From NCBI GenBank assembly GCA_965205945.1, contig CBDBIB010000002.1, positions 32,001 to 96,000 of the forward strand: 64,000 bases of DNA, written 5' to 3'. Numbering within the stretch: position 1 is the stretch's first letter; the number at the start of each line of letters is the position of its first letter. Position numbers and translations under genes: made by a program. The notes below the pieces were generated by a model. It was not told where the DNA came from, ran no database searches, and worked only from the letters and a program-made list of their open reading frames with translations. Shown one piece after another: positions 1 to 58,100 of the stretch. Source of the stretch: Bdellovibrionales bacterium. Lineage in GTDB: Bacteria; Bdellovibrionota; Bdellovibrionia; Bdellovibrionales; UBA1609.

Positions 1-1241
1 AAAAATTCCCAGTTTTTTTGTCTAAAAGTATTATCTAATTTATCTAAAGTCTTCCAATTTTTAAAATAGTGTTCTGTTCTACAATCGTTTGCAGTGCTTG
101 GTAAAGAAATATCTATATCTAGACCGTTTTGATGACTCCTATGTGTTTTAAAATAACTACCGTTTTTAAGAGATAAATCATTTATACATATGGGAGCTTT
201 TGGATGTAAGCGGTTAAATTCCTCTGAGATATACTCAACTGTTTTTATTAAAAGACCTGAGGCGTACTGCTTATTTCTTCTTTGTGGATTAATTTTAGAA
301 CCTTTAAGGCGAGATGGGAGTTGTGTTGAATGTATTATTTTACCATATTTATCATGATGTTTAGAATAAAAATATTTGGACTGATTAAAAGTAGTTGTTT
401 GTATTTCTTTTAAAAGTACATTGCCAAAATCTTTCTTGTATTGTAGCAGGTCGTAAGTTTCTGCTGAGTTAATATTAAAACCCTTTTGTGCTGTATTTTC
501 ACCAATATTTGGAAATATAAATCTACCAGCTCCAACAGCTGTACTTTCACTATCAATAATAATTGTGTTCTCACTATTAATTTCAGGATTAGTTATGGTA
601 GGGCTTGGTAAAGGTTTTGGAGTAGAAGGTTCTTTTGAAAAAATTAGAGTTTCTTCAGGGGCTAATATTGAATTTTTAGTTTCATTAGAATTGTCTGCTC
701 TAAACTGCTCAGTAATTTTAAGATCATTTACAAAATAAGCGATTTCAAGGGCAAGCTCATTACATGTGACTTTATTATCATCTAAGCACATGCCTTGGAG
801 TGTCACTATTTTTTTTGAAAAACCTGAGGATTTAGTAAATAAAAAATGCTTTTCATGGTTCTTAGGGGTTAAAAAAGTAATGGATTCTAAAATGCCATTA
901 TAAGTGATATCTAGAGTGACTTTTTTTTGACCATTATTTTTAAAAAGTACTCTAGGGTTTGAAAAAGTAATTTTCTCATGGTTTAACTCGTTTAGCTTTA
1001 CCTTTGTTTTTTCTGCTCTATTTCTTTGAATTTCCTCTTCTAACTTCCTAATAAAAGAGTTTTTAGAGTAAAGTGAGGTAATGGGAAGCAGCTCAATAGT
1101 GGGCTCTCCTTGGGCGTTTATTTGAATATGAGGTGCCGCTTTTGAGCGAGTAAAGCTATTAGAAGAGGGATTATTTTCAGCACAGCTGGCTAGAAAGAAT
1201 AAAAAGATTAGAATAAAGCCTATTATTAGGTTGTAAGGCAT
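1..1241 (-). CDS. mepA: MepA-family (peptidase M74) murein endopeptidase lipoprotein, 3' end runs off window
   Basis: Not in ORF track. Manual translation from ATG 1241 (GGAG upstream; alternative ATG 1247) gives signal peptide with lipobox LASC. In the same frame, 111-143 reads HRSHQNGLDID, the MepA HxSHQxGLDxD zinc motif. The middle of the frame was only spot-checked. Confidence 0.75.
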   Translation of the reverse strand, partial: MPYNLIIGFILIFLFFLASCAENNPSSNSFTRSKAAPHIQINAQGEPTIELLPITSLYSKNSFIRKLEEEIQRNRAEKTKVKLNELNHEKITFSNPRVLFKNNGQKKVTLDITYNGILESITFLTPKNHEKHFLFTKSSGFSKKIVTLQGMCLDDNKVTCNELALEIAYFVNDLKITEQFRADNSNETKNSILAPEETLIFSKEPSTPKPLPSPTITNPEINSENTIIIDSESTAVGAGRFIFPNIGENTAQKGFNINSAETYDLLQYKKDFGNVLLKEIQTTTFNQSKYFYSKHHDKYGKIIHSTQLPSRLKGSKINPQRRNKQYASGLLIKTVEYISEEFNRLHPKAPICINDLSLKNGSYFKTHRSHQNGLDIDISLPSTANDCRTEHYFKNWKTLDKLDNTFRQKNWEF

Positions 1242-1259
1242 TTTCATCTCCATTTAATG

Positions 1260-1276
1260 AGCAATATGGGTGCCAA
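1260..1276 (-). promoter_or_regulatory. sigma54 (-24/-12) promoter upstream of mepA-like gene
   Basis: Minus strand reads TTGGCAC-CCATA-TTGCT, matching TGGCAC-N5-TTGCW. Confidence 0.65.
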
Positions 1277-1280
1277 GCCG

Positions 1281-2129
1281 TTATTTAGAAAATTTTATGG
1301 TTCTAGCAAGTCCTAAGTAAACACTAATGGAGTTCATTTTAACAGTGTCTGAAGATGGATATAAGCCATACTCAAGCCATAAAGGAACATAAATCTTGTT
1401 AGATATTAAAATATCTATACCTGCTCCAGCCTGCATGAAAATGGCCGTTGTAAGGTCTTCTTTATTTAAGGCCGTTGTACTGTTGGGAATAGGATTAAAT
1501 AAAATACCTAACCCCAAACCTGCCCAAAAGTTATATTTGCCTTTGTTAAAATGGTAGCGAGGCCAAATATCTAGATTTGTAAAGGTTAAGTCCACTTTGC
1601 AAACAGCTTTAGAAGTATTATTTTGCTTTATACATTGAGTGTTGCTTGTATCTTCAGAATAAAAAGCCTGCTGTCCTAAAGAAGTTCTTAGATAAAGTTT
1701 TTTATGAAGCTTAAAATCTAGAAGTAGTTCAGAAGAAATGCTAGTTCCCGTATAAGAATCTAAACGAGGAGAATCGTTTTTAAAAAGCACATCAGAAGAG
1801 TTATTATTAAAACCTAGGGCAAAGCCTATGGCCAGCTTTCTGTCTTTAATTTTTTTAATTGGAATATTGCGTTTTTTTAAAGTCCAATTAGCTAAAGCCT
1901 TTCCTTTAAGAAGTCTTGCTAAAGCTTGATCTTTTTTAAGTTTCACTATCCTAACAATACCTTTTTTTTTCCCATTAGACATGAGGTAATAGAGTTTACC
2001 TATTTGAATATTATCATCATCAGTATCAATTAAGACAGCAGATCCCTTTACTTTTAGAACTTGGGCGGGAAAAGAAGATATAGAAAAACTTAAGCTTAAT
2101 ATAAAAAGTAGCATAAGTATATAACGCAT
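1281..2129 (-). CDS. outer-membrane beta-barrel protein with small N-terminal domain
   Basis: Start revised to ATG 2129 (AGGAGG upstream); signal peptide; C-terminal half has alternating amphipathic strands with aromatic residues. Confidence 0.6.
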   Translation of the reverse strand: MRYILMLLFILSLSFSISSFPAQVLKVKGSAVLIDTDDDNIQIGKLYYLMSNGKKKGIVRIVKLKKDQALARLLKGKALANWTLKKRNIPIKKIKDRKLAIGFALGFNNNSSDVLFKNDSPRLDSYTGTSISSELLLDFKLHKKLYLRTSLGQQAFYSEDTSNTQCIKQNNTSKAVCKVDLTFTNLDIWPRYHFNKGKYNFWAGLGLGILFNPIPNSTTALNKEDLTTAIFMQAGAGIDILISNKIYVPLWLEYGLYPSSDTVKMNSISVYLGLARTIKFSK

Positions 2130-8004: not shown

Positions 8005-8456
8005 AAACTTTGATTTAAATATTTTAAAAAAACTTTTTGAAAATCTTAATCTCTAGTCTATAAAGCCACCATTGGTGGCTAAACTGTTAATTTGTTTCGA
8101 TAATGACGCTTCTACATTTTAATAAACTTTAAATCAATTTTTAGCTTTAGTAATTAGTCAAGTAGCAAAAATTAAATTTAAAGAACTAAAGTTTCATTAA
8201 ATGGGTTTCTTTGCTACCAGCCTCATATCCGTGTGCTGGGTAATGCATTAAGTGGTCTTTTCTTTCCAAAAAGTAAGCACTCACTTTTACTATTTTCTAA
8301 GCTAAATTAGATAAACTATGACTAATTTTGTTACTCCTTTTGAAATAGCTTCATAGAATTTAAATTTAAATCAAACCTGCTTCATTTAAACCTCGGCCTA
8401 TAGATTGCTCTAGTCTAAAAGTACGAAGTTAAGAAATATTAAAAAAGGAGCTAGAA

Positions 8457-9104
8457 ATGGTACGTATACTAATTATAAAAACAGTTTTTTTAATGGCTTT
8501 TACAGTTTTGGCTAATCAACAAAAGATTAAAAATGATCTTGTATGGTCAGATATTGACAATAATACTTTTAAAGTAAGAAATGAAATAAGAATTCAAAGA
8601 AATTACAACTCAATCAGTGATAGTGAAGGGCTTATGCCTGTAGGATCATTTATTAAGCTTGCTCAAGACATTAACCTTAGAAAAACTCCAAATGGTGAAT
8701 TAATTAAACCTCTTTTTAGGGGTGATGAGTTTCAAGTTTTAAACGTAATCGTAGATAATAACAAAACTAGGCACTATAAGATTAAATCTAAAAAAGATTT
8801 TGGTTACCTTTATGCAGGAACTAAGGTTTCTTATTCAAAGTGGATTAAACAAACATGGTCATCTAATAACAAGATAATTGCTCAACCTGGTGATATGATT
8901 AAGGTAAGAAGAATAAAAGGCTTAAAAATTTCTAAAAAAATTAATGATAAAGATTTCTTCTACTTAATTCCAAAGAACTCAGAAGTTCGAGTTAAATCAA
9001 TAATTCAAGATAAATCAGGAAAACTATACTATAAAGTTAAGTATAAATCTAAAGCAGGGTTTGCTCAAGTTACAAACTTTAATAAGCTTGGTTATCCACT
9101 ATGA
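8457..9104 (+). CDS. secreted protein with two SH3-like domains
   Basis: Signal peptide; INLRKTPNG...HYKIK...GYLY and YYKVKY...GFA resemble bacterial SH3b; AAGGAG RBS. Confidence 0.55.
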   Translation: MVRILIIKTVFLMAFTVLANQQKIKNDLVWSDIDNNTFKVRNEIRIQRNYNSISDSEGLMPVGSFIKLAQDINLRKTPNGELIKPLFRGDEFQVLNVIVDNNKTRHYKIKSKKDFGYLYAGTKVSYSKWIKQTWSSNNKIIAQPGDMIKVRRIKGLKISKKINDKDFFYLIPKNSEVRVKSIIQDKSGKLYYKVKYKSKAGFAQVTNFNKLGYPL

Positions 9105-22836: not shown

Positions 22837-25800
22837 TTAATAACCAGGGCTACAACGTGTAAAATTAGGTTTTTCAGCACGAGTCCAAGAAGTTAAAGTT
22901 CGGCCTGAAAAACTGCCGCAATCGAGAACGTTAGAAACATTCCATGAACTGATGTCTTGATCAAAAGAAGCTGCACCATTAAACATAGACCTCATACTAG
23001 TAACCTTAGAAGTGTCCCAGTCAGAGGTGTCAGGGTTAGCTAAAGCTGCATTATTAAACATAGAGTTCATATTAATAACCTTAGAAGTGTCCCAGTTAGA
23101 GGTGTCAGGGTTAGCTAAAGCTGCATTATTAAACATAGAGTTCATATTAATAACCTTAGAAGTGTCCCAGTTAGAGGTGTCAGGGTTAGCTAAATCTGCA
23201 CCATAAAACATAGAGTTCATATTAGTAACCTTAGAAGTGTCCCAGTTAGAGGTGTCAGGGTTAGCTAAATCTGCACCATAAAACATAGAGTTCATATTAG
23301 TAACCTTAGAAGTGTCCCAGTCAGAGGTGTCAGGGTTAGCTAAAGCTGCACCTAAAAACATCCAGCTCATATTAGTAACCTTAGAAGTGTCCCAGTCAGA
23401 GGTGTCAGGGTTAGCTAAATCTGCACTATTAAACATATAGCTCATATTAGTAACCTTAGAAGTGTCCCAGTCAGAGGTGTCAGGGTTAGCTAAAGCTGTA
23501 TTAGAAAACATAAAGCCCATACTAGTAACCTTAGAAGTGTCCCAGTCAGAGGTGTCAGGGTTAGCTAAATCTGCATTATAAAACATAGAGCTCATACTAG
23601 TAACCTTAGAAGTGTCCCAGTCAGAGGTGTCAGGGTTAGCTAAATCTGCATTATAAAACATAGAGCTCATACTAGTAACCTTAGAAGTGTCCCAGTTAGA
23701 GGTGTCAGGGTTAGCTAAAGCTGCATCATAAAACATCAAGCCCATATCAGTAACCTTAGAAGTGTCCCAGTTAGAGGTGTCAGGGTTAGCTAAAGCTGCA
23801 TCATAAAACATCAAGCCCATACTAGTAACCTTAGAAGTGTCCCAGTTAGAGGTGTCAGGGTTAGCTAAAGCTGCATAAGAAAACATAGAGTTCATACTAG
23901 TAACATGTCTAGTTGAGCCACCATTAACAAGAGTTAAGTTATCTGCTTTATAAAACATATAACTAAAACTTTCCCACCCTGTGTCTCCTAATTCTGTAAC
24001 CTCAATTATTTGCTCGCTATCACGAAAGTTAAGATATGGGCAGCGCCCAGTGATTTTAACTATATAAGTCCCTGAAGATGAATAAGTATGATTTTTATCT
24101 AAATCACTTGATGAAGTAACAACTCCCGAGGTTCCATCCCCCCAATGAACCATAAAGTTATATGTATAAGAAGAACTTAAACTAAGATTTAAATTTAAAT
24201 CACTACCATAAATTCTAAATTTAGCTGTAAAAGGGGTTCCTAAATTTTGTATTTCAGTGCTTAAACTAACTACATCAGACAGGTTTCCGGCTGCATCTTG
24301 TGCAACACCAGAGGCGATTGTAATTTGAATATTTCCGGTTTCATCACTGCAGTCTGAAATCCTAATACTTGGATTAATAGTTGTTCCATTTGTTACTAAA
24401 ACTGTGCAACCTGTAGTAGTTCCAGTAAGGCTGACATTGCTCTTTTCTAGGTTTATACTACTAAAGTCTTGGCTTACAGTTATGGGAAAGTCTATAGAAT
24501 TTGAACTGCTTATTATATGGCTTCCAATACTGACAATAGGGGGTTTAGTATCTTTTATTAGATTTAAAACACCTGAAGTTTTAGAATTTCCAGCAATGTT
24601 TGTGATACTAGCAGTTAGTGAAAGTGGACCATCACTTAGGCTTGAAAAATCAATATCACCACTAAAGCTTTTATTAGAACAAGTAATAAAGCTTGTACCA
24701 TGTGAAAATGTGATAAGCTCACCATCTTCAGAACATGTTCCTAAAACCCTAAAACCCCCCTCATTAATAGAATTAATGTAAGATCCACTTAAAGAGTTTG
24801 TAATAGAAATTGTTGGATCATTGTTACTTAAAAAAGTTTTCCACACTACCCCATCGCAAAACTCCAGTTTTTTTCCTAAAGAATTATACCTTAAAGTACC
24901 CTCAGTTAAACTGTCACAAGGGGTTGTAACTGTTCCAACTTTTTTTAAAAATGTAACAGTAGATGTACTAATAGATCCTGGAGTAGAAATGCTTCCAGAG
25001 ACAGAAACATCACCATTATTGTTAATAGTGATTCCTTCATCATCGCCGTCTCCACTTAAATAATTTTGGTTAAGATTTATATTTAATCGAGCCCTGCCAT
25101 CTCCCATATTATCAGCACTGCTTGGTAAGTTTATAAGCCGACTTCCATCAACAGCAGGCAGTCTTAAAGAGCTATCAAGCTTAATAAGCTGATTGCTCCC
25201 TGTGCCAACATCTAATCTAGCTGTGCTAATGGTTCCTGAAGTGATCTTTTCTCCATTTAAATCTGGTATATCAGATTTTAATAAACTTAAACCCTCAACC
25301 ACTCTTCCTTTAACATCAACTCTAACTTTTGGGTACGTCCCTTGGGTTACACCCGTTGGTATAAGACTAGGGTTCGGGTAGGTTCCTGTAAGATCCCCTT
25401 GAGCCTGGCTTCCTAAAAGACTTGTGTCTGTCACACATGACCATAAATAAATAGGACCTTCACTCATTTGAAGTTTTTCATTGCTTTCACAATTAGGCAC
25501 TCCACCAGCATCCATTGCGTTGCCTGCATTTTTTCCTAAAGAAGCTTTTAAATAACCGTTTAAAAAGTTTGAATGTGTTATTTTTTTAAGACCACTTTGA
25601 GAAACATCATACATTAAAACACTGTCTAAAGAATCAGCCGTAGTTTTTTCTGTAGTTTTGTTAATGTCTACACTTAAACTTCTATTAGTTGATAAATCTC
25701 CACCTCCACTTAATCCACTGTTTAAAGCCGTTCTAATAGTTCTAGTTATTGGAGCTTTTCTAGATTCAAGTTCATTAAGTGCACCTTCTACATCTGTAGC

Positions 25801-28800
25801 CTGAATGTTTCCAAATGGAGTGTAGGTCACCGTGTTTGCCGCTAGACTTGCTAAACTCCAACCTTCAGACACATCCTTACAATTTGCTCCTCTTTCATCA
25901 CAAATTTGTGTTATTCTTGCTGTTCCAGCAACGTCTAATAAAGCCTCAGGACTAGCCTTACCAACTCCAACCCTTCCACTAGCATCAATAATAATTCCCT
26001 CATTATCACCGTCTCCACTTAAATAATTTTGGTTAAGATTTATATTTAATCGAGCTATACTATCTCCCATATTATCAGCACTGCTTGGTAAGTTTATAAG
26101 CCGACTTCCATCAACAGCAGGCAGTCTTAAAGAGCTATCAAGCTTAACAAGCTGATTACTCCCTGTGCCAACATCTAATCTAGCTGTGCTAATGGTTCCT
26201 GAAGTGATCTTTTCTCCATTTAAATCTGGTATATCAGATTTTAATAAACTTAAACCCTCAACCACTCTTCCTTTAACATCAACTCTAACTTTTGGGTACG
26301 TCCCTGGGGTTACACCCGTTGGTGTAAGACTAGGGTTTGGGTAGGTTCCTGTAAGATCCCCTTGAGCCTGGCTTCCTAAAAGACTTGTGTTTTGATCAAC
26401 TTCACATGACCAGGAATAAATAGGACCTTCACTCATTTGAAGTTTTTCATTGCTTTCACAACTAGGCACTCCACCAGCATCCATTGCGTTGCCTCGACTT
26501 TTTCCTAAAGAGGCTTTTAAATAACCGTTTAAAAAGTTTGAATGTGTTATTTTTTTAAGACCACTTTGAGAAACATCATATATTAAAACACTGTCTAAAG
26601 AATCAGCCGTAGTTTTTTCTGTAGTTTTGTTAATGTCTACACTTAAACTTCTATTAGTTGATAAATCTCCACCTCCACTTAATCCACTGTTTAAAGCCGT
26701 TGTAATAGTTCTAGTTATTGGAGCTTTTCTAGATTCAAGTTCATTAAGTGCACCTTCTACATCTGTAGCCTGAATGTTTCCAAATGGAGTGTAGGTCACC
26801 GTGTTTGCCGCCAGACTTGCTAAACTCCAACCTTCAGACACATCCTTACAATTTGCTCCTCTTTCATCACAAATTTGTGTTATTCTTGCTGTTCCAGCAA
26901 CGTCTAATAAAGCCTCAGGACTAGCCTTACCAACTCCAACCCTTCCATTAGCATCAATAATAATTCCCTCATTATCACCGTCTCCACTTAAATAATTTTG
27001 GTTAAGATTTATATTTAATCGAGCTATACCATCTCCCATATTATCAGCACTGCTTGGTAAGTTTATAAGCTGACTTCCATCAACAGCAGGCAGTCTTAAA
27101 GAGCTATCAAGCTTAACAAGCTGATTGCTCCCTGTGCCAACATCTAATCTAGCTGTGCTAATGGTTCCTGAAGTGATCTTTTCTCCATTTAAATCTGGTA
27201 TATCAGATTTTAATAAACTTAAACCCTCAACCACTCTTCCTTTAACATCAACTCTAACTTTTGGGTACGTCCCTGGGGTTACACCCGTTGGTATAAGACT
27301 AGGGTTCGGGTAGGTTCCTGTAAGATCCCCTTGAGCCTGGCTTCCTAAAAGACTTGTGTTTTGATCAACTTCACATGACCATAAATAAATAGGACCTTCA
27401 CTCATTTGAAGTTTTTCATTGCTTTCACAACTAGGCACTCCACCAGCATCCATTGCGTTGCCTCGACTTTTTCCTAAAGAGGCTTTTAAATAACCGTTTA
27501 AAAAGTTTGAATGTGTTATTTTTTTAAGACCACTTTGAGAAACATCATACATTAAAACACTGTCTAAAGAATCAGCCGTAGTTTTTTCTGTAGTTTTGTT
27601 AATGTCTACACTTAAACTTCTATCAGTTGATAAATCTCCGCCTCCACTTAATCCACTGTTTAAAGCCGTTCTAATAGTTCTAGTTATTGGAGCTTTTCTA
27701 GATTCAAGTTCATTAAGTGCACCTTCTACATCTGTAGCCTGAATGTTTCCAAATGGAGTGTAGGTCACCGTGTTTGCCGCCAGACTTGCTAAACTCCAAC
27801 CTTCAGACACATCCTTACAATTTGCTCCTCTTTCATCACAAATTTGTGTTATTCTTGCTGTTCCAGCAACGTCTAATAAAGCCTCAGGACTAGCCTTACC
27901 AACTCCAACCCTTCCACTAGCATCAATAATAATTCCCTCATTATCACCGTCTCCACTTAAATAATTTTGGTTAAGATTTATATTTAATCGAGCTACGCTA
28001 TCTCCCATATTATCAGCACTACTTGGTAAGTTTATAAGCCGACTTCCATCAACAGCAGGCAGTCTTAAAGAGCTATCAAGCTTAATAAGCTGATTGCTCC
28101 CTGTGCCAACATCTAATCTAGCTGTGCTAATAGTTCCTGAAGTGATCTTTTCTCCATTTAAATCTGGTATATCAGATTTTAATAAACTTAAACCCTCAAC
28201 CACTCTTCCTTTAACATCAACTCTAACTTTTGGGTACGCCCCTTGGGTTACACCCGTTGGTGTAAGACTAGGGTTTGGGTAGGTTCCTGTAAGATCCCCT
28301 TGAGCCTGGCTTCCTAAAAGACTTGTGTCTGTGTCTGTATCAATATCAGCCACGCAAGAATAGCTTATTATAGCACCAGGGTTTCGTTGAATCTTTTCCC
28401 CACTAGTACACACAGGAAGAGTGTCCACTTGCATGAGCTGTCCTAAACCACTTCCTATATCTGCTTCTAAACCCCTTGGCGTAATTTTTAAACCACTTCC
28501 TACTTTTACTTTTAATTTATTTATATTAAACTCTAAACCCCCAGAAGAATCTAAATCTAAATCTATGTTTCCACTGTTGTTGTATAAACCCCTACCAAGG
28601 TTGATGCTTATTGTTGGGTTGCTACCACCTGAAGAGGTTAAAGGAGCATTGACTAAAACACTTGATGCACTACTTAAGGTGCTTAAAACTTCTAAGCTAA
28701 CACCATTCCAATACTTAAGCGCTCCAGAGTCACTATTGTACCAAGTAGCCCCAGCATTGCTCATGTTCATAGATCCTAAAAGACTAACTTCTTCTAAATT

Positions 28801-29928
28801 CGTATAAGAACCTAAGGTCATGGTACTTCCTGGGTTTTGCATAATATGACTTGTGTTTAGAATCTGATTATTATTAAGATTAAGGTCACCTAATAAAACC
28901 CCTCCTGTAAGAGGAAGTTTTGTATTGTCAGTTCCTGTGGGAACCACTGAGCTTGGTAGAATTCCACTTGTGATTTTATTTGCATGAATACCACTTGCAA
29001 GATGACTGTTTAAAACACCCCCTGGTGCAATTAAAATTGTACCACTGTTTGTAATGGTTCCACCACTTAAGCCGCTTCCTGCTGTAATACTGGTTACAGT
29101 TCCACTACCTTTACCAACAACAGTGGCTGCTGATCCATTGTAGTACATGATTTGATTATTTGTAGAGTTATACCAAATATCTCCTGCCTGAGAATTAGGT
29201 GGTGGATGAGAGCTTGAAAAACTAGGTAAAAAGCTAGCTCCACTGATGCTTAATGGGGAGTATTGATTAGAACTGCCATTAATTAAAGCCATAAGCTCCC
29301 TTTGATTGGCATCATTATCAAACACGGTCTCTAAATTGCTTTGAGTAACACCACGACTTACTTGAATAAAATCATTAACAGCTTTTCCACCAAGTTTGCC
29401 GGCATACTGAGCATAGGGCACACTGTGAATTATATGATCATTTGTTAAAGTAAGAGGGCCGCTGCCATGATCAAAAGTTACTCTAAGCCTTCTTGTATCG
29501 TTTAAGGTTGGAGTGTATGAAGACCCAAAGGCACAACTAAGACTTTTATTGTTTAAAAAAGAATTGTCTAAAGCTTTAGATAAATTTGTTAAGCCTCCAT
29601 TTCCTGTGTTTATTCCAGACCCAACGTTTAAGTTAAAAACTCCCTTTGATCCTATCATATTAAGATTAAAACTTTCTTCGTAAAGAAGACAATGATCCAT
29701 GGAGGATAAAACTTGAACAAGAAAGCTGACATTATTTTCTTCTAAAGCGTCTCCATTGGGTTTTACAATTTGGCCTTGAAAAACAAAAGAACTTGGGGTG
29801 GCTAGAGAATGGGGAGTTAATAGTAAAATTGTGAAGAAAGTTAGAGCTTTCACACCTATTTCTATGAAATTTTTTAATAAGTCATATACTCTATACATAT
29901 TGTATATTTCGGATGAAAAGCTTAACAA
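22837..29928 (-). CDS. giant phage-tail-fibre-like (Bdellovibrio MAT-type) adhesin with repeat stalk, Ig/PKD-like domains and BspA/DUF285 LRR head
   Basis: N-terminal FVFQGQIVKPNG...CLLYEE...G.FNL.VG domain; fibre motifs GTVTSITAGSGLSGG, GDLTGTYPNP, YPKVRVDVKGRV, GRVGVGKASP; EGTLRYN..EFCDG connector; VHWGDG; WDTSKVTxMxxMF repeats. True start may be GTG 29853. Confidence 0.85.
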   Translation of the reverse strand: MLSFSSEIYNMYRVYDLLKNFIEIGVKALTFFTILLLTPHSLATPSSFVFQGQIVKPNGDALEENNVSFLVQVLSSMDHCLLYEESFNLNMIGSKGVFNLNVGSGINTGNGGLTNLSKALDNSFLNNKSLSCAFGSSYTPTLNDTRRLRVTFDHGSGPLTLTNDHIIHSVPYAQYAGKLGGKAVNDFIQVSRGVTQSNLETVFDNDANQRELMALINGSSNQYSPLSISGASFLPSFSSSHPPPNSQAGDIWYNSTNNQIMYYNGSAATVVGKGSGTVTSITAGSGLSGGTITNSGTILIAPGGVLNSHLASGIHANKITSGILPSSVVPTGTDNTKLPLTGGVLLGDLNLNNNQILNTSHIMQNPGSTMTLGSYTNLEEVSLLGSMNMSNAGATWYNSDSGALKYWNGVSLEVLSTLSSASSVLVNAPLTSSGGSNPTISINLGRGLYNNSGNIDLDLDSSGGLEFNINKLKVKVGSGLKITPRGLEADIGSGLGQLMQVDTLPVCTSGEKIQRNPGAIISYSCVADIDTDTDTSLLGSQAQGDLTGTYPNPSLTPTGVTQGAYPKVRVDVKGRVVEGLSLLKSDIPDLNGEKITSGTISTARLDVGTGSNQLIKLDSSLRLPAVDGSRLINLPSSADNMGDSVARLNINLNQNYLSGDGDNEGIIIDASGRVGVGKASPEALLDVAGTARITQICDERGANCKDVSEGWSLASLAANTVTYTPFGNIQATDVEGALNELESRKAPITRTIRTALNSGLSGGGDLSTDRSLSVDINKTTEKTTADSLDSVLMYDVSQSGLKKITHSNFLNGYLKASLGKSRGNAMDAGGVPSCESNEKLQMSEGPIYLWSCEVDQNTSLLGSQAQGDLTGTYPNPSLIPTGVTPGTYPKVRVDVKGRVVEGLSLLKSDIPDLNGEKITSGTISTARLDVGTGSNQLVKLDSSLRLPAVDGSQLINLPSSADNMGDGIARLNINLNQNYLSGDGDNEGIIIDANGRVGVGKASPEALLDVAGTARITQICDERGANCKDVSEGWSLASLAANTVTYTPFGNIQATDVEGALNELESRKAPITRTITTALNSGLSGGGDLSTNRSLSVDINKTTEKTTADSLDSVLIYDVSQSGLKKITHSNFLNGYLKASLGKSRGNAMDAGGVPSCESNEKLQMSEGPIYSWSCEVDQNTSLLGSQAQGDLTGTYPNPSLTPTGVTPGTYPKVRVDVKGRVVEGLSLLKSDIPDLNGEKITSGTISTARLDVGTGSNQLVKLDSSLRLPAVDGSRLINLPSSADNMGDSIARLNINLNQNYLSGDGDNEGIIIDASGRVGVGKASPEALLDVAGTARITQICDERGANCKDVSEGWSLASLAANTVTYTPFGNIQATDVEGALNELESRKAPITRTIRTALNSGLSGGGDLSTNRSLSVDINKTTEKTTADSLDSVLMYDVSQSGLKKITHSNFLNGYLKASLGKNAGNAMDAGGVPNCESNEKLQMSEGPIYLWSCVTDTSLLGSQAQGDLTGTYPNPSLIPTGVTQGTYPKVRVDVKGRVVEGLSLLKSDIPDLNGEKITSGTISTARLDVGTGSNQLIKLDSSLRLPAVDGSRLINLPSSADNMGDGRARLNINLNQNYLSGDGDDEGITINNNGDVSVSGSISTPGSISTSTVTFLKKVGTVTTPCDSLTEGTLRYNSLGKKLEFCDGVVWKTFLSNNDPTISITNSLSGSYINSINEGGFRVLGTCSEDGELITFSHGTSFITCSNKSFSGDIDFSSLSDGPLSLTASITNIAGNSKTSGVLNLIKDTKPPIVSIGSHIISSSNSIDFPITVSQDFSSINLEKSNVSLTGTTTGCTVLVTNGTTINPSIRISDCSDETGNIQITIASGVAQDAAGNLSDVVSLSTEIQNLGTPFTAKFRIYGSDLNLNLSLSSSYTYNFMVHWGDGTSGVVTSSSDLDKNHTYSSSGTYIVKITGRCPYLNFRDSEQIIEVTELGDTGWESFSYMFYKADNLTLVNGGSTRHVTSMNSMFSYAALANPDTSNWDTSKVTSMGLMFYDAALANPDTSNWDTSKVTDMGLMFYDAALANPDTSNWDTSKVTSMSSMFYNADLANPDTSDWDTSKVTSMSSMFYNADLANPDTSDWDTSKVTSMGFMFSNTALANPDTSDWDTSKVTNMSYMFNSADLANPDTSDWDTSKVTNMSWMFLGAALANPDTSDWDTSKVTNMNSMFYGADLANPDTSNWDTSKVTNMNSMFYGADLANPDTSNWDTSKVINMNSMFNNAALANPDTSNWDTSKVINMNSMFNNAALANPDTSDWDTSKVTSMRSMFNGAASFDQDISSWNVSNVLDCGSFSGRTLTSWTRAEKPNFTRCSPGY
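22968..23904 (-). repeat. 75-bp (25-aa) tandem LRR repeat, 12 units plus partial
   Basis: Unit ANPDTS(N/D)WDTSKV(T/I)xMxxMFxxAxL; period 75 bp (e.g. 23041 vs 23116). Confidence 0.95.
25038..28329 (-). repeat. 969-bp near-identical tandem repeat, 3 full units plus partial
   Basis: Marker TTCCTAAAAG at 28311, 27342, 26373, 25410 (periods 969, 969, 963). Confidence 0.95.
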
Positions 29929-29988
29929 TTAGAGGGAATTAAATAGTTTTTTAGCTCTAATTCTACATTTTTATTTTCATTTAAAATC

Positions 29989-30031
29989 TGTGCTTTTACA
30001 AAACATGCCGATAAGGAGGATTATGTTACTA
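29989..30031 (+). repeat. left 43-bp inverted repeat containing dif-like XerC/XerD site
   Basis: TGTGCTTTTACAAAA-CATGCCGATAA-GGAGGA-TTATGTTACTA; 41/43 identical to reverse complement of 30498-30540. Confidence 0.9.
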
Positions 30032-30497
30032 TTTCTGCTTAAAACCACATTATTTTTGATTTGACCTGCTGATTTTAACTATGGTGCTTAAGTGTAAATT
30101 TCTTTGTGACATAAAAATGTTGCAAAATAGTTACGTTTAATTAACAAGATTTTCTTGTTTAAATAATATCTCTATACAAATAAATATTAAAAAAACCTTA
30201 AAGAATATCGCTTTAAATATTTATTTAATTTTATATAATACATATGCTGTATCTTAATAACTTTTAAACTTAGATGTTGGTTAAAATAACAGCTATGATA
30301 AATAAAGATATTTAAATCTAAGCTTTAAAAAAAGAGCGCTAAATATTAAATATTTTTAAAGTAAATTCTAAAGCAGTCCTTATTTTTAATGATAAAAATT
30401 TTATTGAAAATAATAATTTTAAAAAAATAAAGTCTAAACTTTTATAATTAAATACTTTTAAACTTAAATATAATTTTAAAATAGACGTAAATAGACG

Positions 30498-30540
30498 TAG
30501 TAACATAATCCTCCTTATCGGCATATTTTATAAAAGCACA
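30498..30540 (-). repeat. right 43-bp inverted repeat containing dif-like XerC/XerD site
   Basis: Minus strand TGTGCTTTTATAAAA-TATGCCGATAA-GGAGGA-TTATGTTACTA. Confidence 0.9.
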
Positions 30541-30545
30541 CCATC

Positions 30546-30639
30546 CATATTAATAACTTTAAAAGTATTCCAACCAGAGATGTTAGGGGGTTACTAAAGC
30601 TGCATTACTCAATGCATATGGCTCATATTAGTAACATGT
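30546..30639 (-). pseudogene. degenerate orphan copy of the adhesin's 75-bp LRR repeat
   Basis: CATATTAATAACTTTAAAAGTATTCCAACCAGAGATGTTAGGG...CTAAAGCTGCATTA...CTCATATTAGTAACATGT aligns with units at 22968-23904, same orientation, with indels. Confidence 0.7.
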
Positions 30640-30688
30640 GTAGCTCCGACTCCCTACAAGGAAATAACGGCTAGAAAACGCTAAGTGT
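30637..30688 (+). mobile_element. IS1595 transposase 3'-end fragment
   Basis: 51/52 identical to reverse complement of 45025-45076; reads VAPTPYKEITARKR-stop. Confidence 0.75.
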
Positions 30689-30793
30689 TAGCATTAACTG
30701 CATATTGTCTGCGTCCTTTTAAACCAGCAATACGTGCTTAAAACCATGAAAATAGAGTGTTAAACCAGATTTAAAAAGTCCCAACTCGGGTTA
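30686..30793 (-). mobile_element. MITE-like / IS-end remnant, copy B
   Basis: Minus strand TAACCCGAGTTGGGACTTTTTAAATCTG...; roughly 80% identical by eye to 22413-22522. Confidence 0.6.
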
Positions 30794-31003
30794 TTGTAAA
30801 AGTTTAAAATAGCAGAACATAAATTAAAAACCGTCACTTAATAAATGAACTGTTTAAAATTGTTGATCATCCATCCTTAGAATTTATAAATTTATGTAAA
30901 CTTTAAACCCTTTTTAATCAGGGTTTTAGAGGTTTTAATTTTTGTAAAGAGTTTATTTTAAAAAAGGTAAGTGTCATGGGTTACCCTTTAAGTTTTAAAC
31001 AGT

Positions 31004-51013: not shown

Positions 51014-54000
51014 ATGGCTAAGAATGCAGTCACAGCTTCTAACCTCAGATTAAGAAAGAGTTTCTCTAAAAATAGTGTCGTAATTGACATCCCAAATTTA
51101 ATTTTACTACAAAAGCAATCATACGAAAAATTTCTTCAAAAAGATGCTGATTCTGAAAGAAGAGAGGAGTTTGGTCTTCAGTCTGTATTTCAGTCTGTAT
51201 TTCCAATTTCTGATTTTAATGGAACATCTAATTTAGAGTTTGTTAATTATACCCTTGAACCGCCTAAGTATGATGTTGATGAGTGTAGACAAAGAGGGAT
51301 GACATTTGCCTCCCCACTAAAAGTAACATTACGTTTAATTGTTTTTGAAGTTGATGAAGTTACTGATGCTCGTTCTATTAGGGATGTAAAAGAGCAAGAG
51401 GTATATTTAGGTGAAATTCCGCTTATGACAACAAATGGATCATTTATTATAAATGGAACAGAAAGAGTTGTTGTAAGTCAATTACACCGTTCACCAGGTG
51501 TTTTCTTTGACCATGATGGTGGAAAGGGAAGTACAACAGGAAAATTTTTGTACAATGCACGGGTCATTCCTTATAGAGGGTCTTGGTTAGATTTTGAGTT
51601 TGATCAAAAAGACCTTCTTTATTGTAGAATTGATAGGAGAAGAAAATTTCCTGTAACAATTTTATTAAAAGCTTTAGGCTATAACGATGAAGAATTACTA
51701 CAGTTTTTCTATGATTTAGATAAAGTTATTTTTGAAAATGGAAAATACTTTAGATATATTAGTGTTGAAAAATTATCAGGTCAAAGAGCAATTTCTGATA
51801 TTAAAGATCCAAAAACTAATGAAGTTTTAGTTAAAGCTGGGCGTCGTATTACGCGTGCTTTAGTTAAAAAGATGGAAGCTGTTAATTTGGAAAGAATTGA
51901 AGTTTCTACTGAAGATATGATTGGTAAAACTTTAGCAAGGCCTATTGTTGATCTTACTACAGGTGAGGTTTTGGCTGATACAAATACAGAAACAACAGCT
52001 GATTTATTAGAGTTGGTAAAATCTGTAGGAGTGTCGGAATTTTCGGTAATCTTTTTTGATGGTTTATCAGTAGGTCCTTATCTTAGAAACACTCTTTTAA
52101 TTGATAAGGTTTCGACTAAGGATGAAGCTCTTGTAGAGATTTATAAACGTTTGCGCCCAGGAGAACCTCCGACAATTGAAGCAGCGGCGGCTTTTTTTAA
52201 GCGTTTATTCTTTGACCCAGAAACCTATGATTTAAGTGAGGTGGGTCGCTTAAAAATCAATCATAGATTCGGATTTGATAGTGGTAATAAATCTTTAGAA
52301 CTTCAAACGCTAACTCAAGATGGTATTATGGCTGTTGTTAAGACTTTGATTGATCTTAAAAATGGTCAAGGAAAAGTTGATGATATTGATCATCTTGGTA
52401 ACAGAAGAGTGCGTTCGGTTGGTGAGCTTTTAGAAAATCAATATAGAATCGGTCTTGTTAGAATGGAACGTTCAATTAAAGAAAGAATGAGCCTTCAAGA
52501 TTTAGAGACAATGATGCCACATGATTTAGTTAATGCTAAACCTGTAAATGCAGTTGTTAAAGAATTTTTTGGATCTAGCCAGCTTTCTCAATTTATGGAT
52601 CAAACAAATCCACTTTCTGAAATTACTCATAAAAGAAGACTTTCTGCTCTAGGTCCAGGGGGGTTAACTAGAGACAGGGCTGGTTTTGAAGTTCGTGACG
52701 TACATCCTACGCATTATGGTCGTATTTGTCCCATTGAAACTCCGGAGGGGCCCAATATTGGTCTGATCGCCTCACTTGCTACATATGCAAGGATTAACAA
52801 ACATGGATTTATTGAAACCCCTTATAGAGAGGTTGTGGAAGGTAAGGTATCTTCTGAAATTAAATATTTTTCTGCACTTGATGAATTTGGGAAAACAATT
52901 GCTCAGGTTGATAGGGATGAGAGGAAAACAGATAAGATTATAAAAGATAAAGTTAATGTTAGGCATGATGGAGAATATGAAATTCTTGATAAGAACTGCG
53001 TATCTTTAATGGATGTATCGCCAAGTCAGTTGGTGTCTATTGCTGCATCGTTGATTCCTTTTTTGGAACATGATGATGCAAATAGAGCTTTAATGGGATC
53101 AAACATGCAGCGTCAGGCCGTTCCGTTAATGAGATCTAAAGCTCCACTAGTAGGAACTGGTGTTGAAAGGCTTGTAGCTAAAGACTCTGGAACATCTATT
53201 GTTGCAATGAACGATGGTGTTGTTGAAGAGGTGGATGCATCTAGGATAGTGATAAGAAGGTTTGCAAGAGCTGGAGAACTTGGGGCGAATATTGATATTT
53301 ATAATTTGACAAAATACCAAAGGACCAACCAAAATACTTCGTTTAATCAAAAACCAATCGTTAATCTTGGTGATGTAGTTAAAAAAAATAATGTTGTTGC
53401 AGATGGTCCATCTACTGAGCTTGGTGAATTGGCTTTAGGCCAAAATATTTTAGTCGCATTCACACCTTGGATGGGTTATAATTATGAGGATTCAATTCTT
53501 ATTTCTGAAAGACTCATTAAAGATGATGTGTACACATCAGTTCACATTGAAGAGTTTGAGTGTGTTGCAAGAGATACTAAGCTTGGAAAAGAAGAGATAA
53601 CTAGAGATATTGCAAATGTTGGTGAAGAGGCTTTATCAGAGCTAGATTCTTCAGGTATCATTAGAATTGGTGCCGAAGTAACTCCGGGAGATATTTTAGT
53701 CGGTAAAGTGACTCCTAAGGGGGAGACTCAGCTTTCTCCAGAAGAAAAGCTTTTAAGAGCAATTTTTGGCGAAAAAGCTGGGGATGTTAGAGACAGTTCA
53801 TTAAGAGTACCATCTGGAGTTCAAGGCACTATAATTGATGCTCAAGTTTATTCAAGAGATGCAACTAATCAGAGTGAACGATTGCTATCAATTTTAAATG
53901 ATAAGAAAATCAAGCTTGAAAAAGATCATGGCATTGAACAAAATGTAATTAAAAACGCAGCTTTAGATAAGCTTAAGACTTTGTTAATTGGTAAAAAAAT

Positions 54001-55177
54001 AATTGGTGAACTCTTAAATGAAGATGGATCTAAAGTCTTATTAAATGAGGGTGATATAATTACAGGTGAAGATCTTGAGAGTATTCCATTTGGGCTTTTA
54101 AGCTATTTACCACTTGCTTCTGAAATCGAGCAACAGGTTGTTTATATTGTTGATGGCGCAAGAAATAAGCTTGAGGCCATTAAAATGGTTTTTGAAGACA
54201 AGATTGAAAATCTGTATAAAGGTGATGAGCTTCCTCCAGGCGTTGTAAAGATGGTTAAAGTTTATGTTGCAATTAAACGTAAGCTGCAAGTTGGTGATAA
54301 ATTTGCCGGTCGTCACGGTAATAAAGGGGTTATTTCTAGAGTTATGCCTGTAGAAGATATGCCTTATTTAGAAAACGGAACTCCTGTTGATATGGTTTTA
54401 AATCCACTAGGGGTGCCTTCTCGTATGAACATTGGTCAGATCTTAGAGATTCATTCAGGTATGGCAGCTAGAACACTAGGTGTTCAGATTGGTGATATGC
54501 TTGAAGATTTTAATGCAGATCAAGTAAGGGAAAAACTTAAAATTTCTTACTCAGATGATGTTATTTCAAAAAAGATCAATAGTGCAGATGACAATTCAAT
54601 TAAGAAGATGGCTATTAAAGTTAAAGATGGAATTCATTTAGCAACACCAGTTTTTGATGGTGCTAGAGAGTTTGAAATTAAAGAAATTTTAGCTCGTGCA
54701 GGACTTTCTACAACAGGTCAATCATTATTATTTGATGGAAGAACAGGGGAGGCCTTTGAAAACCCAGTTACTGTTGGAATCATGTATATGCTAAAACTCC
54801 ACCACTTGGTTGAAGAAAAAATTCATGCCAGATCTATCGGTCCATATTCACTAGTATCTCAACAGCCATTAGGTGGTAAGGCGCAATTTGGTGGACAAAG
54901 ACTTGGAGAGATGGAGGTCTGGGCCATTGAAGCATATGGAGCAGCATATTGTTTACAGGAATTCTTAACAGTTAAATCAGACGATGTGGCTGGTAGGACT
55001 AGAATGTATGAGAGTATTGTTAAAGGTGAGTATGTATTAGAGCCAGGTCTTCCTGAGTCTTTTAATGTGCTTCTTAAGGAATTACAGTCTTTAGCGCTAG
55101 ATGTGCAATTAGTAGAATCAAATGTTTTATCTGATGATGAAGTAGATGCTGTTAAACCTCAACTAGAATTACAATAA
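51014..55177 (+). CDS. rpoB: RNA polymerase beta subunit
   Basis: [34 protein letters not shown]. Confidence 0.99.
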
Positions 55178-55192
55178 GTAAGGAGTTAGAAA

Positions 55193-58100
55193 TTGAAAGA
55201 TTTATTAAACTTTTTTGATAAACCAAAAGATCCATTAGCCTTTGAAGGTGTTAAAATTGGTTTAGCTTCCCCAGAGCTTATTCAAAGCTGGTCGTTTGGT
55301 GAAGTTAAAAAACCTGAGACGATTAATTATAGAACGTTTAAACCTGAAAGAGAGGGTTTGTTCTGTGCTAAGATTTTTGGGCCAATTAAAGATTATGAGT
55401 GTTTATGTGGAAAGTATAAGAGAATGAAATTTCGTGGTGTTGTTTGTGAAAAATGTGGTGTTGAGGTGACTCAATCTAAAGTGCGCCGTGAACGTATGGG
55501 TCATATTGAACTTGCATCTCCAGTTGCTCATATTTGGTTTTTAAGATCACTTCCAAGTAGAATTGGAAACATTCTTAATTTAACATTAAAAGATGTAGAA
55601 AGAGTTCTTTATTGTGAAGCTTATGTGGTTATTGATCCAATGGAGACAACATTAGAAGAGTCTCAAGTTCTTGGGGAAGAAGCTTACCAAGCTGCTTTAG
55701 AGGAGTTTGGCCCCAATTTTCATGCTGATATTGGAGGCAATGCAATTTCAGAGCTTCTTAAAAAAGTTGATGTTGAGTACTTATCTAAAAAACTTAGGAT
55801 GGAGCTTAAAGAAGTTAAATCTGAAGCGGCAACTAAGAAACTAACTAAAAGACTAAAGGTTTTAGAGGCTTTTAAAGGTACAGTAAATAAGCCTGTGTGG
55901 ATGATGCTACAAAATGTTCCGGTAATTCCACCAGACCTAAGACCTTTAGTGCCTTTAGATGGTGGTCGCTTTGCAACTTCTGATTTAAACGATCTTTACA
56001 GACGAGTAATTAATAGAAATAACCGTTTAAAAAGGTTACAAGAGCTAAATGCTCCTGATGTTATTATTAGAAATGAAAAAAGAATGCTACAAGAAGCTGT
56101 GGATGCGCTTCTTGATAATGGAAGGCGAGGCAAAACTTTTACTGGTCCAAATAAAAGGCCTCTTAAATCTTTAAGCGATATGCTTAAAGGCAAACAGGGT
56201 AGATTTAGGCAAAATTTGTTAGGCAAGCGTGTGGATTATTCTGGGCGTTCAGTTATTGTTGTCGGTCCAAATTTAAAGCTCCATCAATGTGGTCTTCCAA
56301 AGAAAATGGCTCTTGAACTATTTAAACCATTTATTTTTGCAAAGCTTGAAGAACGTGGTTTTGCTACTACAATTAAGCAGGCTAAAAAATTAGTTGAAGA
56401 GCAGACTGTAGAAGTTTGGGATATTTTATCTGAAGTGGTTAAAGAACATCCGGTCATGTTAAACAGAGCACCTACTCTTCATAGGCTTGGTGTTCAGGCA
56501 TTTGAGCCTGTTTTACATGAAGGAAAGGCAATTCGTCTACACCCTCTTGTATGTACAGCGTTTAATGCTGATTTTGATGGTGATCAAATGGCTGTACATG
56601 TGCCGTTATCTGTTGAAGCACAGGTTGAAGCACGTGTGCTTATGATGTCAACAAATAATATCTTGTCTCCTGCAAATGGTAGACCAGTAATTAATCCCAC
56701 ACAGGATATTGTTTTAGGTTGTTATTGGATGACAAGAATTAAGCCTGGAGCAAAAGGTACGGGTAAACTTTTTGGAAACGTAAATGAAGTTCTTTATGCT
56801 TATGAAGCAAAGAATGTGGATTTACAAGCAGCTATTAAGGTTAGAGTTCATGGAAAAATTTATGATACATCTGTTGGAAGAGCTATTTTTAGTGATATTC
56901 TTCCTTTAGAGGTTCCTTTTAATGAAATCAATAAACCATTAGATAAGAAAGAGCTTGCTAGTGTGATTGATAAATCATTTAGACTTGCTGGCGGCAAAGC
57001 TACGGCAATTTTAGCAGACAATATTATGGAAAAAGGCTTTACCTATTCAACTAAAGCAGGGATTTCAATTTGCCTTGATGACTTAAAGATTCCTGAGGCA
57101 AAAACTAAAATGATTCAAACTGCTGAAAATGAGGTTTTAGAGATTCAAGGGCAGTACGATGAAGGTTTAATCACTGACGGTGAACGCTATAATAAAGTTG
57201 TAGATATATGGGCTCAAACTGGTGATAAAGTGGCCAAAGAAATGATGAGGCATATTGAAAAAGAAGAGTTTAATGTAAATGGTGAAACTGTTATAGGGGA
57301 TAGTTTTAATTCAATTTTTGTTATGGCAGACTCTGGAGCAAGAGGTTCAGCTGCACAGATTAGACAACTTGCAGGTATGAGGGGTTTGATGGCTAAACCA
57401 TCTGGTGAGATCATTGAAACACCAATTACTGCAAATTTTAGAGAAGGTTTATCAGTGCTTCAATACTTTATTTCTACCCATGGTGCACGAAAGGGACTTG
57501 CCGATACAGCACTTAAGACAGCAAATTCAGGCTATTTAACAAGAAGGCTTGTAGATGTGGCTCAAGATGTGATTGTTACCCAGCAAGATTGTGGAACAAC
57601 TGATGGAATGGCACTTGTGCCGTTAATGGAGGGTGGAGAAATCATTCAACCGTTAAGTGAAAGAGTGCTTGGTCGTACCTGCATGGAAGATGTTAAAGAT
57701 CCATATAGTGAAGAGGTTCTTGTAGAGGCGGGTGAAGAAATCGCTGAAGGTCATATTGAGAAAATAGATAAAGCTGGCGTTATTAAAGTTATGATTAGAT
57801 CAGTATTAACTTGTAAATCTAGACGAGGCGTTTGTGTTAAATGTTACGGTCGTGACTTATCTCGTGGAACAACGGTTAACCTTGGTGAAACTGTTGGTAT
57901 TATAGCAGCACAGTCTATTGGTGAACCGGGGACACAACTTACAATGAGGACATTTCATGTGGGTGGTACAGCAACTAGAGCTGTTGAGCAGTCAGTTCAT
58001 ATTTCTAGAATGGATGCACTGTTTAAATTAGAAGGTGTTTCCACGGTTACTAATAAAGATGGAAAGCTTGTTTCTATGAATAGAAGTGGATATATTTTGC

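Follow-up and report, generated by a model that had tools for sequence, protein, structure and literature searches.

Inverted pairs of dif-like sites bound invertible cassettes upstream of giant fibre genes in a Bdellovibrionales bacterium: a candidate XerC/D-driven switch

Does an inverted pair of dif-like Xer sites directly upstream of a giant surface-fibre gene form a recombinational switch, and if so, which enzyme would flip it? We examined this question for a 552-bp unit at positions 29989-30540 of a 64,000-nt stretch of DNA (the window), which corresponds to contig C2:32001-96000 of Bdellovibrionales bacterium GCA_965205945.1 (G000), a genome of 1.87 Mb with 32.5% GC in five contigs. An earlier reading of the window's letters (the sequence-only reading) had proposed that host XerC/D is co-opted at this locus as a phase-variation switch for a predator adhesin. 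Comparison among loci places the 552-bp unit in a set of eight site-specific invertible cassettes, which together with one truncated copy precede nine paralogous fibre-adhesin genes. The full chain, in which XerC/D flip an orientation-dependent switch of these genes, is the account we favour, at somewhat better than even chances.

The locus comprises the following elements, where A denotes the leader (gene) flank, B the other conserved flank, and X and Y the two ends of the cassette.

22837-29853, minus strand: giant surface-fibre gene, 2338 aa from GTG 29853; one of nine paralogs
29854-29988, minus strand: flank A (leader, from switch to start codon), 135 bp, ~99% identical in all nine paralog loci
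29989-30031, plus strand: left inverted-repeat arm; dif-like core 30004-30031, with XerC-type arm 30004-30014, spacer 30015-30020 and XerD-type arm 30021-30031
30032-30497, no strand assigned: invertible cassette, 466 bp, without a credible gene; the X end (30032 to ~30165) is gene-proximal here
30498-30540, minus strand: right inverted-repeat arm; dif-like core 30498-30525, with XerD-type arm 30498-30508, spacer 30509-30514 and XerC-type arm 30515-30525
30541-30643, no strand assigned: flank B, 103 bp, conserved at six switch loci (blastn)

A repeat search returned an inverted repeat at 29989-30041 and 30488-30540 (53 nt, 89% complementary), whose outer 43 nt on each side (29989-30031 and 30498-30540) differ at two positions (41/43 identical) and enclose the 466 bp of the cassette, which has 18.5% GC against 32.5% for the genome. 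Each 43-bp arm contains an XerC-type arm (C/T)ATGCCGATAA, the spacer GGAGGA and an XerD-type arm TTATGTTACTA; the spacers are the same at both sites, and the XerD-type arms point inward. The 27-mer core has two exact copies in the window, whereas none of 100 dinucleotide-preserving shuffles contained a match at three or fewer mismatches. The open reading frame (ORF) of the fibre gene spans 22837-29928, with its first in-frame start, TTG 29928, at 60 bp from the repeat and GTG 29853 at 135 bp. The latter is most likely the real start, because the homologue in G003, a member of the same genus, has ATG at that codon. The sequence-only reading was accurate on all of these structural points: the coordinates, identity and AT-richness of the repeat pair were reproduced, as were the 11-6-11 sites with equal, asymmetric spacers and the 60-135 bp to the adhesin start. 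It had also placed the locus near rpoBC (rpoB and rpoC lie at 51014-59338) and found no recombinase gene in the window (the nearest is at C2:242725), and its arm matches of 7/11 and 8/11 to Escherichia coli dif hold for the E. coli sequence as quoted there.

The evidence for inversion comes from the other copies of this unit. A fuzzy search of the whole G000 genome found 19 matches to the core at up to seven substitutions. Seventeen of them have two or fewer mismatches: sixteen form eight inverted pairs with lengths of 509-567 bp, and one is a solo site. The remaining two are a site at C1:58572 (six mismatches) and a match at seven mismatches that appears fortuitous. A giant ORF accompanies each pair as well as the solo site, its first in-frame start 77-107 bp away. 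When the genome was searched, in turn, with a profile built from the fibre protein's N-terminal 450 residues, nine places were hit, and a site is found upstream of 9/9. Identity among the nine paralogs is 94-98%; their lengths range from 1256 to 2838 aa, and one runs past a contig end. Seven of the eight cassettes share 95.6-99.2% identity, the eighth ~80%. A short segment between inverted repeats directly upstream of a gene is the arrangement expected of an inverton; it is seen here with 466 bp at 135 bp from the start codon, and the site precedes all nine paralogs.

Both orientations of the cassette occur among these loci. We compared each locus with the window locus by blastn after turning all of them so that the gene lies on the left, and the positions given here refer to that frame. 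On the gene side, homology covers 1..1527 in every locus. C2_176032 and C3_99331 are collinear with the window locus through the leader, the cassette and ~100 bp beyond. By contrast, C1_68076, C2_116514 and C1_521581 align directly over 1..1527, in reverse over 1485..2036 and directly again from 1994 onward, which, by alignment, is a clean inversion bounded by the repeat, with breakpoints inside it. C3_589940 and C1_651703 are also inverted; the reversed segment reaches 1396 or 1352 on the far side, where a relic copy of the leader (C3:590450-590540 and C1:651570-651702) has no gene behind it. The last locus, C1_289272, has the solo site with ~160 bp of one cassette end only. Relic A flanks and solo site may be scars of inter-locus recombination, or of deletion between identical sites. 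Relative to the window locus, the cassette is inverted in five of the nine loci: the gene-proximal end is X in 4/9 genes, including the window's, and Y in 5/9, and the 17 junctions divide into A+X (6), A+Y (5), B+X (3) and B+Y (3). Since the group of most similar cassettes holds both orientations, the flips appear recent relative to the duplications. Taken together, these data make inversion at the dif-like sites close to certain.

The congener G003 (98% complete, 10 contigs) provides a replicate of this design. Our comparison sets comprised 40 relatives from the same order, 109 genomes of the same family (G000 and G003 included) and four congeners. G003 has two loci with inverted pairs of the form GTGCTGATAA / TATGGA / TTATGTTACTA, ~546 bp apart, just upstream of fibre homologues of 1248 and 1074 aa; these share 99% identity with one another and, over the N-terminus, 74% with the G000 fibre. 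The outer flanks of the two loci are common to both and the cassette is reversed, with blastn matches direct to 8463, reversed over 8437-8992 at 99.3% and direct again from 8963, so that exchange falls inside the 27-30-bp cores. The spacer TATGGA is private to G003 and unlike that of G000, while the arms are those of dif. Two expectations that follow from the sequence-only reading, similar pairs before other fibre genes and the existence of both orientations, were therefore borne out: all nine paralogs carry a site upstream, and both orientations are seen among paralogous loci in two species, with breakpoints inside the repeats. At three or fewer mismatches the G000 switch site was found in 0/40 relatives, the three other congeners (assemblies of 60-100 contigs) gave no fibre match at 1e-20, and a metagenome scan with the arm pattern and a free spacer returned 21 stretches, each with one exact site and no inverted partner.

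The G003 loci also bear on whether the flips could be RecA-dependent homologous recombination between the repeats, with the likeness to dif incidental to the flipping. The G000 repeat, which extends to 43-53 bp, would suit such an explanation, as would a base of the XerC-type arm that seems to have moved with the cassette at the window locus (discussed below). In G003, however, the dif-like core of 27 bp is the entire inverted repeat, and yet the inversion between 99%-identical loci is precise, which makes homologous recombination an unlikely cause. Furthermore, two species keep dif-like arms with different, internally matched spacers. We regard the RecA explanation as quite improbable.

Two further features of the G003 loci may be recorded here. 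The switch-controlled fibre gene at L054:9102-15896 ends in an Lcl_C (C-type-lectin-like) domain, and behind it lie an ORF resembling bAvd, an IS transposase and an ORF for a reverse transcriptase; this fibre is likely also a target of a diversity-generating retroelement. Directly downstream of the second switch-controlled fibre locus lies a XerC-like gene (L055:13592-14566). The XerC-like gene of G000 lies 43 kb from the nearest switch.

The name dif-like depends on the native dif of the genome, and the site at C1:58572-58599 answers to that description. It reads ATGCTGATAA, GGTATA, TTATGTTACAA and is single-copy in G000. The cumulative GC skew of contig C1 climbs to a plateau at 43-63 kb and drops over the remaining 590 kb; the site sits on this maximum plateau, which places it at the terminus. 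Across the 40 relatives, the pattern GATAA-N6-TTATGTTA has at least one match in 27, and the 19-mer with spacer GTTATA occurs exactly in 15, nearly always once. In G003 the native dif site and its flanks are identical to those of G000. The dif of B. bacteriovorus HD100 assigned by Carnoy and Roten, 'TCTTCTGATAAGTT ATATTATGTAACGG', has the same core (PMC2731167). The switch site and the native dif agree at 9/11 positions of the XerC-type arm, 10/11 of the XerD-type arm and 3/6 of the spacer (GGAGGA in the switch sites, GGTATA in dif). Since this dif candidate was found through its likeness to the switch site, arm likeness alone would be circular; skew position, single copy, conservation and the published sequence are independent of that likeness, and the identification holds on their account. 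The comparison with the true dif on which the sequence-only reading had staked its proposal thus came out in favour of a close relationship, and the switch sites have the features of Xer/dif-type sites: the 11-6-11 layout, an XerD arm of the TTATGTTA type and arms like those of the genome's own terminus dif. The published table of proteobacterial dif sites also lists sites with this architecture.

Which recombinase, then, would act on these sites? G000 encodes five proteins that match PF00589 and one small serine recombinase that matches PF00239. Among the former are an XerC-like and an XerD-like protein, both with the conserved Arg, His-x-x-Arg, His and Tyr motifs (R..HxxR..H..Y), and FtsK with its gamma domain is present. 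None of the recombinase genes lies near any of the nine switch loci. In G003 the PF00589 matches are limited to an XerD-like and an XerC-like protein, alongside one large serine recombinase (628-aa frame). All four congeners have the XerC/XerD-like pair, which indicates a housekeeping pair rather than one added for the switch. Elimination and the resemblance of the arms to dif together make XerC and XerD the best candidates, and they are probably the enzyme that acts on the switch sites.

The gene downstream of the switch appears to encode a fibre adhesin. Its product carries a signal-like peptide at the N-terminus, repeats resembling phage tail fibres and, at the C-terminus, DUF285 repeats, and matches DUF285 in Pfam (3.8e-101) and the tail fibre phrog_7389 in PHROG (4.8e-44). 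A PDB sequence search with the whole fibre protein gave no matches; the only PDB matches of the protein are 8OML and 8ON4, both weak (E 4.7e-4 and 0.009). According to the structural report, these entries are fragments of the B. bacteriovorus mosaic adhesive trimer (MAT) fibre Bd1334 (PMC10769870). On the basis of the DUF285, phrog_7389 and weak Bd1334-fragment matches, fibre adhesin is a fair label. In MAT proteins, a trimeric stalk resembling phage tail fibres bears a variable adhesin tip at the C-terminus, and the tip is DUF285 in G000 and Lcl_C in G003; these resemblances hint, weakly, that the gene belongs to the MAT family.

If the cassette regulates these genes, where would its signal lie? 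Within the cassette, conservation is confined to the X end (30032 to ~30165), both when G000 is compared with G003 and when the diverged copy is set against the other copies. The truncated locus C1_289272 keeps just this end, beside an intact 1694-aa gene. For these reasons we place the functional payload in the X end, and as a weak guess the orientation in the window, with the X end beside the gene, would be ON. The X end also contains a small frame. In the window (30021-30062), the ATG within the XerD-type arm opens a 13-aa frame (MLLFLLKTTLFLI), preceded at 3 nt by the G000 spacer GGAGGA, which is Shine-Dalgarno-like. At the G003 X ends (L054/L055) the same frame is 18 aa long with two synonymous codon changes, and the peptide MLLFL.KTTLFLI is kept. 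The frame may have been kept under coding constraint, as a leader peptide, or under constraint at the DNA level. In all, the XerD-type arms open ATG-initiated ORFs of 13 and 61 aa in the window and of 10 and 18 aa in G003. We rejected these as genes, given that they have no Pfam match and that indels between copies shift the frame of the longer one. No terminator-like site was found at the switch locus, and with an E threshold of 1 the interval 29800-31000 had no Rfam match. We consider it fairly probable that the cassette is a regulatory switch.

The sequence-only reading had offered an alternative of its own, that the repeats are duplicated sigma-28 promoter/ribosome-binding-site units or the ends of a miniature inverted-repeat transposable element (MITE). 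The G000 sites do read GCCGATAA, then GGAGGA and ATG, and the unit is multi-copy, as a MITE would be. This alternative failed on both counts. A TAAA -35 element at 14-16 nt is present in 0/17 sites, and the G003 sites have GCTGATAA and TATGGA, hence neither a sigma-28 -10 element nor GGAGG; the shortness and frame shifts of the ORFs described above speak against ribosome-binding sites. As to a MITE, all copies lie at paralogous positions of one gene family, with no target-site duplication beside the arms. The unit's copies go back to duplication of B, cassette, A and gene as a whole, and not to insertion at unrelated places. Such an origin of the repeats is very improbable.

Returning to the XerC/D-driven switch, we propose a mechanism whose inferred elements are catalysis by XerC/D, the presence of a promoter in the cassette, the choice of the ON orientation and switching that is rapid and reversible. 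The XerC/XerD pair would bind both dif-like sites and synapse them by looping the 466 bp. Strand exchange across the identical, asymmetric spacers would flip the cassette, while the heterologous spacer would block recombination of switch sites with dif. The conserved X end would carry an orientation-dependent expression signal. Each fibre gene would be switched independently, which would result in combinatorial variation of the predator's surface fibres.

A number of observations weigh against this account. Concerning the enzyme, the G000 XerD-like protein reaches 263 bits with TIGR02225 and the XerC-like protein 160 bits with TIGR02224, against NCBIfam equivalog cut-offs of 329.6 and 335. Canonical XerCD needs activation by FtsK at dif, and we know of no activator for inversion here. 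G000 also has three further tyrosine integrases and the small serine recombinase, so that a real switch could be flipped by one of these. Dedicated invertases are usual for phase-variation switches, and Xer-named paralogs are reported to do such work in mycoplasmas (PMC2268961, PMC3599477). Set against this possibility, none of those genes is near any of the nine loci, G003 achieves the same design with only the Xer-like pair and one large serine recombinase, and two other genomes of the family with many sites (G061 and G062) have only the Xer-like pair; the arms, moreover, copy the native dif. A different enzyme is therefore improbable.

Concerning the sites, 17 identical copies should also permit harmful inter-locus recombination. 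Of eight public sequencing runs on record, none of them RNA, four were compared with the window as Logan contigs; these end at the 27-bp cores, no piece spans the locus, and the gene-side flank is repeated. The single joint of the 'opposite strands' type, from 30031 to 30487 in run X4 at depth 3.5, is uninformative on the window locus because its flank variant is that of another paralog locus. The first base of the XerC-type arm, which is polymorphic (C/T), adds a further discrepancy. Exchange within the spacer predicts that this base should stay with the flank. In the five other loci with both flanks, whichever their orientation, the B-flank base is C, and the A-flank base is T in three (those with the leader variant of the window) and G in two (with the other variant). 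The window locus deviates, with C at A and T at B, as if the base had travelled with the cassette. Gene conversion among the nine loci, inter-locus exchange or a RecA crossover in the 43-bp repeat are possible explanations; the A..C+X junction is present at a relic flank, which fits gene conversion.

Concerning expression, our promoter scan found 13 sigma-70-like matches, compared with 6.7 expected in shuffles, and no sigma-70, sigma-28 or sigma-54 motif in the cassette is conserved between G000 and G003. One sigma-70-like match (29928-29899, 9/12) lies in the fixed flank A, from which the gene could be driven in either orientation of the cassette. In G003, the switch is present in only 2/12 full-length paralogs (11 inspected locally, the twelfth covered by the genome-wide pattern search only). 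The upstream regions of nine switch-less G003 paralogs have only ~14 nt ahead of the ATG in common with the leader of the switch type, and for this reason they do not reveal the promoter end.

These observations would suit a passive or selfish, gene-less 'dif module' that inverts occasionally, has no regulatory role and was copied along with the fibre genes. Flanks, cassette and gene were duplicated as one unit, the scans gave no promoter in the cassette and a sigma-70-like site in the leader, and 10/12 G003 paralogs lack the cassette. Such pairs also bound larger segments with unrelated cargo in other members of the family, and dif modules of the same sort are described for Acinetobacter. On the other hand, the distance from the cassette to the downstream start codon of a surface-protein gene is always 135 bp; one end keeps its first 135-160 bp across species and in the 80%-diverged and truncated copies, while the rest drifts; and the near-even orientations (4:5) among 94-98% identical paralogs are what independent switches would produce. 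We consider a passive module unlikely, though less so than the other alternatives.

The XerC/D-driven switch gains a wider context from the 109 genomes of the family. The dif-like pattern was found in 63 of them, mostly once, and seven have at least four sites: G000 (18), G062 (13), G109 (7), G057 (6), G061 (6), G003 (5) and G060 (4). The extra sites in these seven have genome-private spacers and are often paired in inverted orientation at distances of 1.3-10 kb. In the sister genus g19, represented by G060, G057 and G061, seven of eight sites are followed by an ORF of 152-216 aa that is type IV pilin-like, with a PF07963 (N_methyl) motif and its ATG inside the XerD-type arm. The inverted pairs of this pilin type are the following.

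G060, L092:2014-3486: pilin-type inverted pair
G057, L093:2021-3318: pilin-type inverted pair
G061, L094:2015-11958: pilin-type inverted pair
G061, L095:1977-9703: pilin-type inverted pair

The segments between these sites hold a PD-(D/E)XK transposase-like gene or AAA_13/SMC-like ATPase genes, and the arrangement looks like pilin switching by inversion at Xer-type sites. In G062, the 2.49-Mb single contig C1 (L088-L091 and others) has 12 dif-like sites in two spacer classes, GCTTAA and GCTTCA, and the local inverted pairs, 2.6-10 kb long, are class-matched in 4/4 cases. G061 and G062 each encode only two Xer-like tyrosine recombinases and have no PF00239 match. From this distribution, dif mimics would seem to serve the family repeatedly as a means of rearranging surface-structure genes. 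A broader proposal, which we hold tentatively and at slightly less than even chances, is that XerC/XerD may serve as a global invertase on private-spacer dif mimics, forming a switch regulon for surface structures (fibre adhesins here, type IV pilins in the sister genus) in which the spacer would be an address code that insulates the mimics from dif and defines orthogonal classes. Separately, we observed two inverted copies of the lineage's consensus dif itself in G022 (C52:2843-2901, 40 bp apart) and G114 (C1:1166852-1176572, 9.7 kb apart, with identical flanks).

Two further sequences adjoin the switch in the window. Flank B shows 76-79% similarity to DNA coding for the DUF285 repeats of the giant genes; it probably descends from a gene copy that once lay next door in an ancestral tandem array. 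Beyond it, at 30686-30798, lies a dispersed repeat of ~108 bp, of which the genome holds at least 15 copies with identities of 80-99%; some stand ~315 bp downstream of three giant genes, and one lies beside the native dif. The bin that contains this repeat reaches a summed contig depth of 336 in run X1. The repeat has no Rfam match, and its fold is not significant (z = 0.56 and -0.44).

Several known systems resemble parts of this arrangement. On Acinetobacter plasmids, a published study describes reversible inversions between opposed XerC/D sites with identical spacers (PMC9947245), and another indicates that site sequence governs the compatibility of XerC/D sites (PMC11705084). As described there, the Acinetobacter pdif pairs share with the pairs found here opposed 28-bp sites, identical 6-bp spacers and inversion, which in Acinetobacter is reversible. 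They are plasmid-borne, delimit gene-carrying modules (resistance, toxin-antitoxin) and are read as plasmid plasticity, whereas the present set of 17 sites is chromosomal and encloses gene-less segments (466 bp in the window) at a fixed distance before one surface-protein family.

The Bacteroides fragilis capsule is reported to have multi-locus invertible promoters under a global invertase (PMC10403206). As in the present case, unlinked surface-structure loci each have their own short inverted-repeat segment, with a shared repeat and no adjacent invertase. Combinatorial expression states are a feature of the Bacteroides system and are only proposed here; Bacteroides uses a dedicated invertase at sites unrelated to dif, whereas here the sites copy dif and the only conserved candidates are the Xer pair. 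The mpl family of M. penetrans is a further multi-locus invertible promoter system.

Xer1 of Mycoplasma agalactiae (Vpma) and XerC of Ureaplasma (mba) are reported to invert DNA before surface-protein families (PMC2268961, PMC3599477). The recombinase there is reported to act at locus-specific recombination sites, in contrast to the dif mimics spread over three contigs here, and G003 has no extra Xer paralog. The Xer1 gene sits at the vpma locus. IMEXs (integrative mobile elements that exploit Xer) are reported to use Xer at non-dif sites independently of FtsK (PMC9226527, PMC6744903). Both IMEXs and the dif/XerCD/FtsK system have in common with the switch the 11-6-11 architecture and host XerC/XerD, the latter presumed here. 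They integrate, excise or resolve at direct or single sites, whereas inverted pairs, with a spacer unlike that of dif, would lead to inversion.

Our literature searches turned up XerC/D-mediated inversion on Acinetobacter plasmids only. We found no report of chromosomal dif-like inverted pairs as phase-variation switches and no Xer-linked switching for Bdellovibrio, and the main text of the MAT-fibre paper contains neither 'promoter' nor 'inversion'. What would be new relative to known site-specific invertible switches is thus the type of site and the presumed enzyme.

XerCD is regarded as a tightly policed housekeeping system whose action at dif, once in each cell cycle, is controlled by FtsK; to our knowledge it is otherwise hijacked only by mobile elements. 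If our account is correct, the host itself re-uses Xer for programmed gene switching, with 17 extra dif mimics placed before its major fibre family. This would raise the questions of how Xer is activated away from the septum and how spacers insulate the switches from dif. The recurrence of the design with different spacers in several genera of the family supplies natural replicates for such work. For predatory bacteria, the switch would offer a testable route to variation of prey-recognition fibres, here MAT-like proteins.

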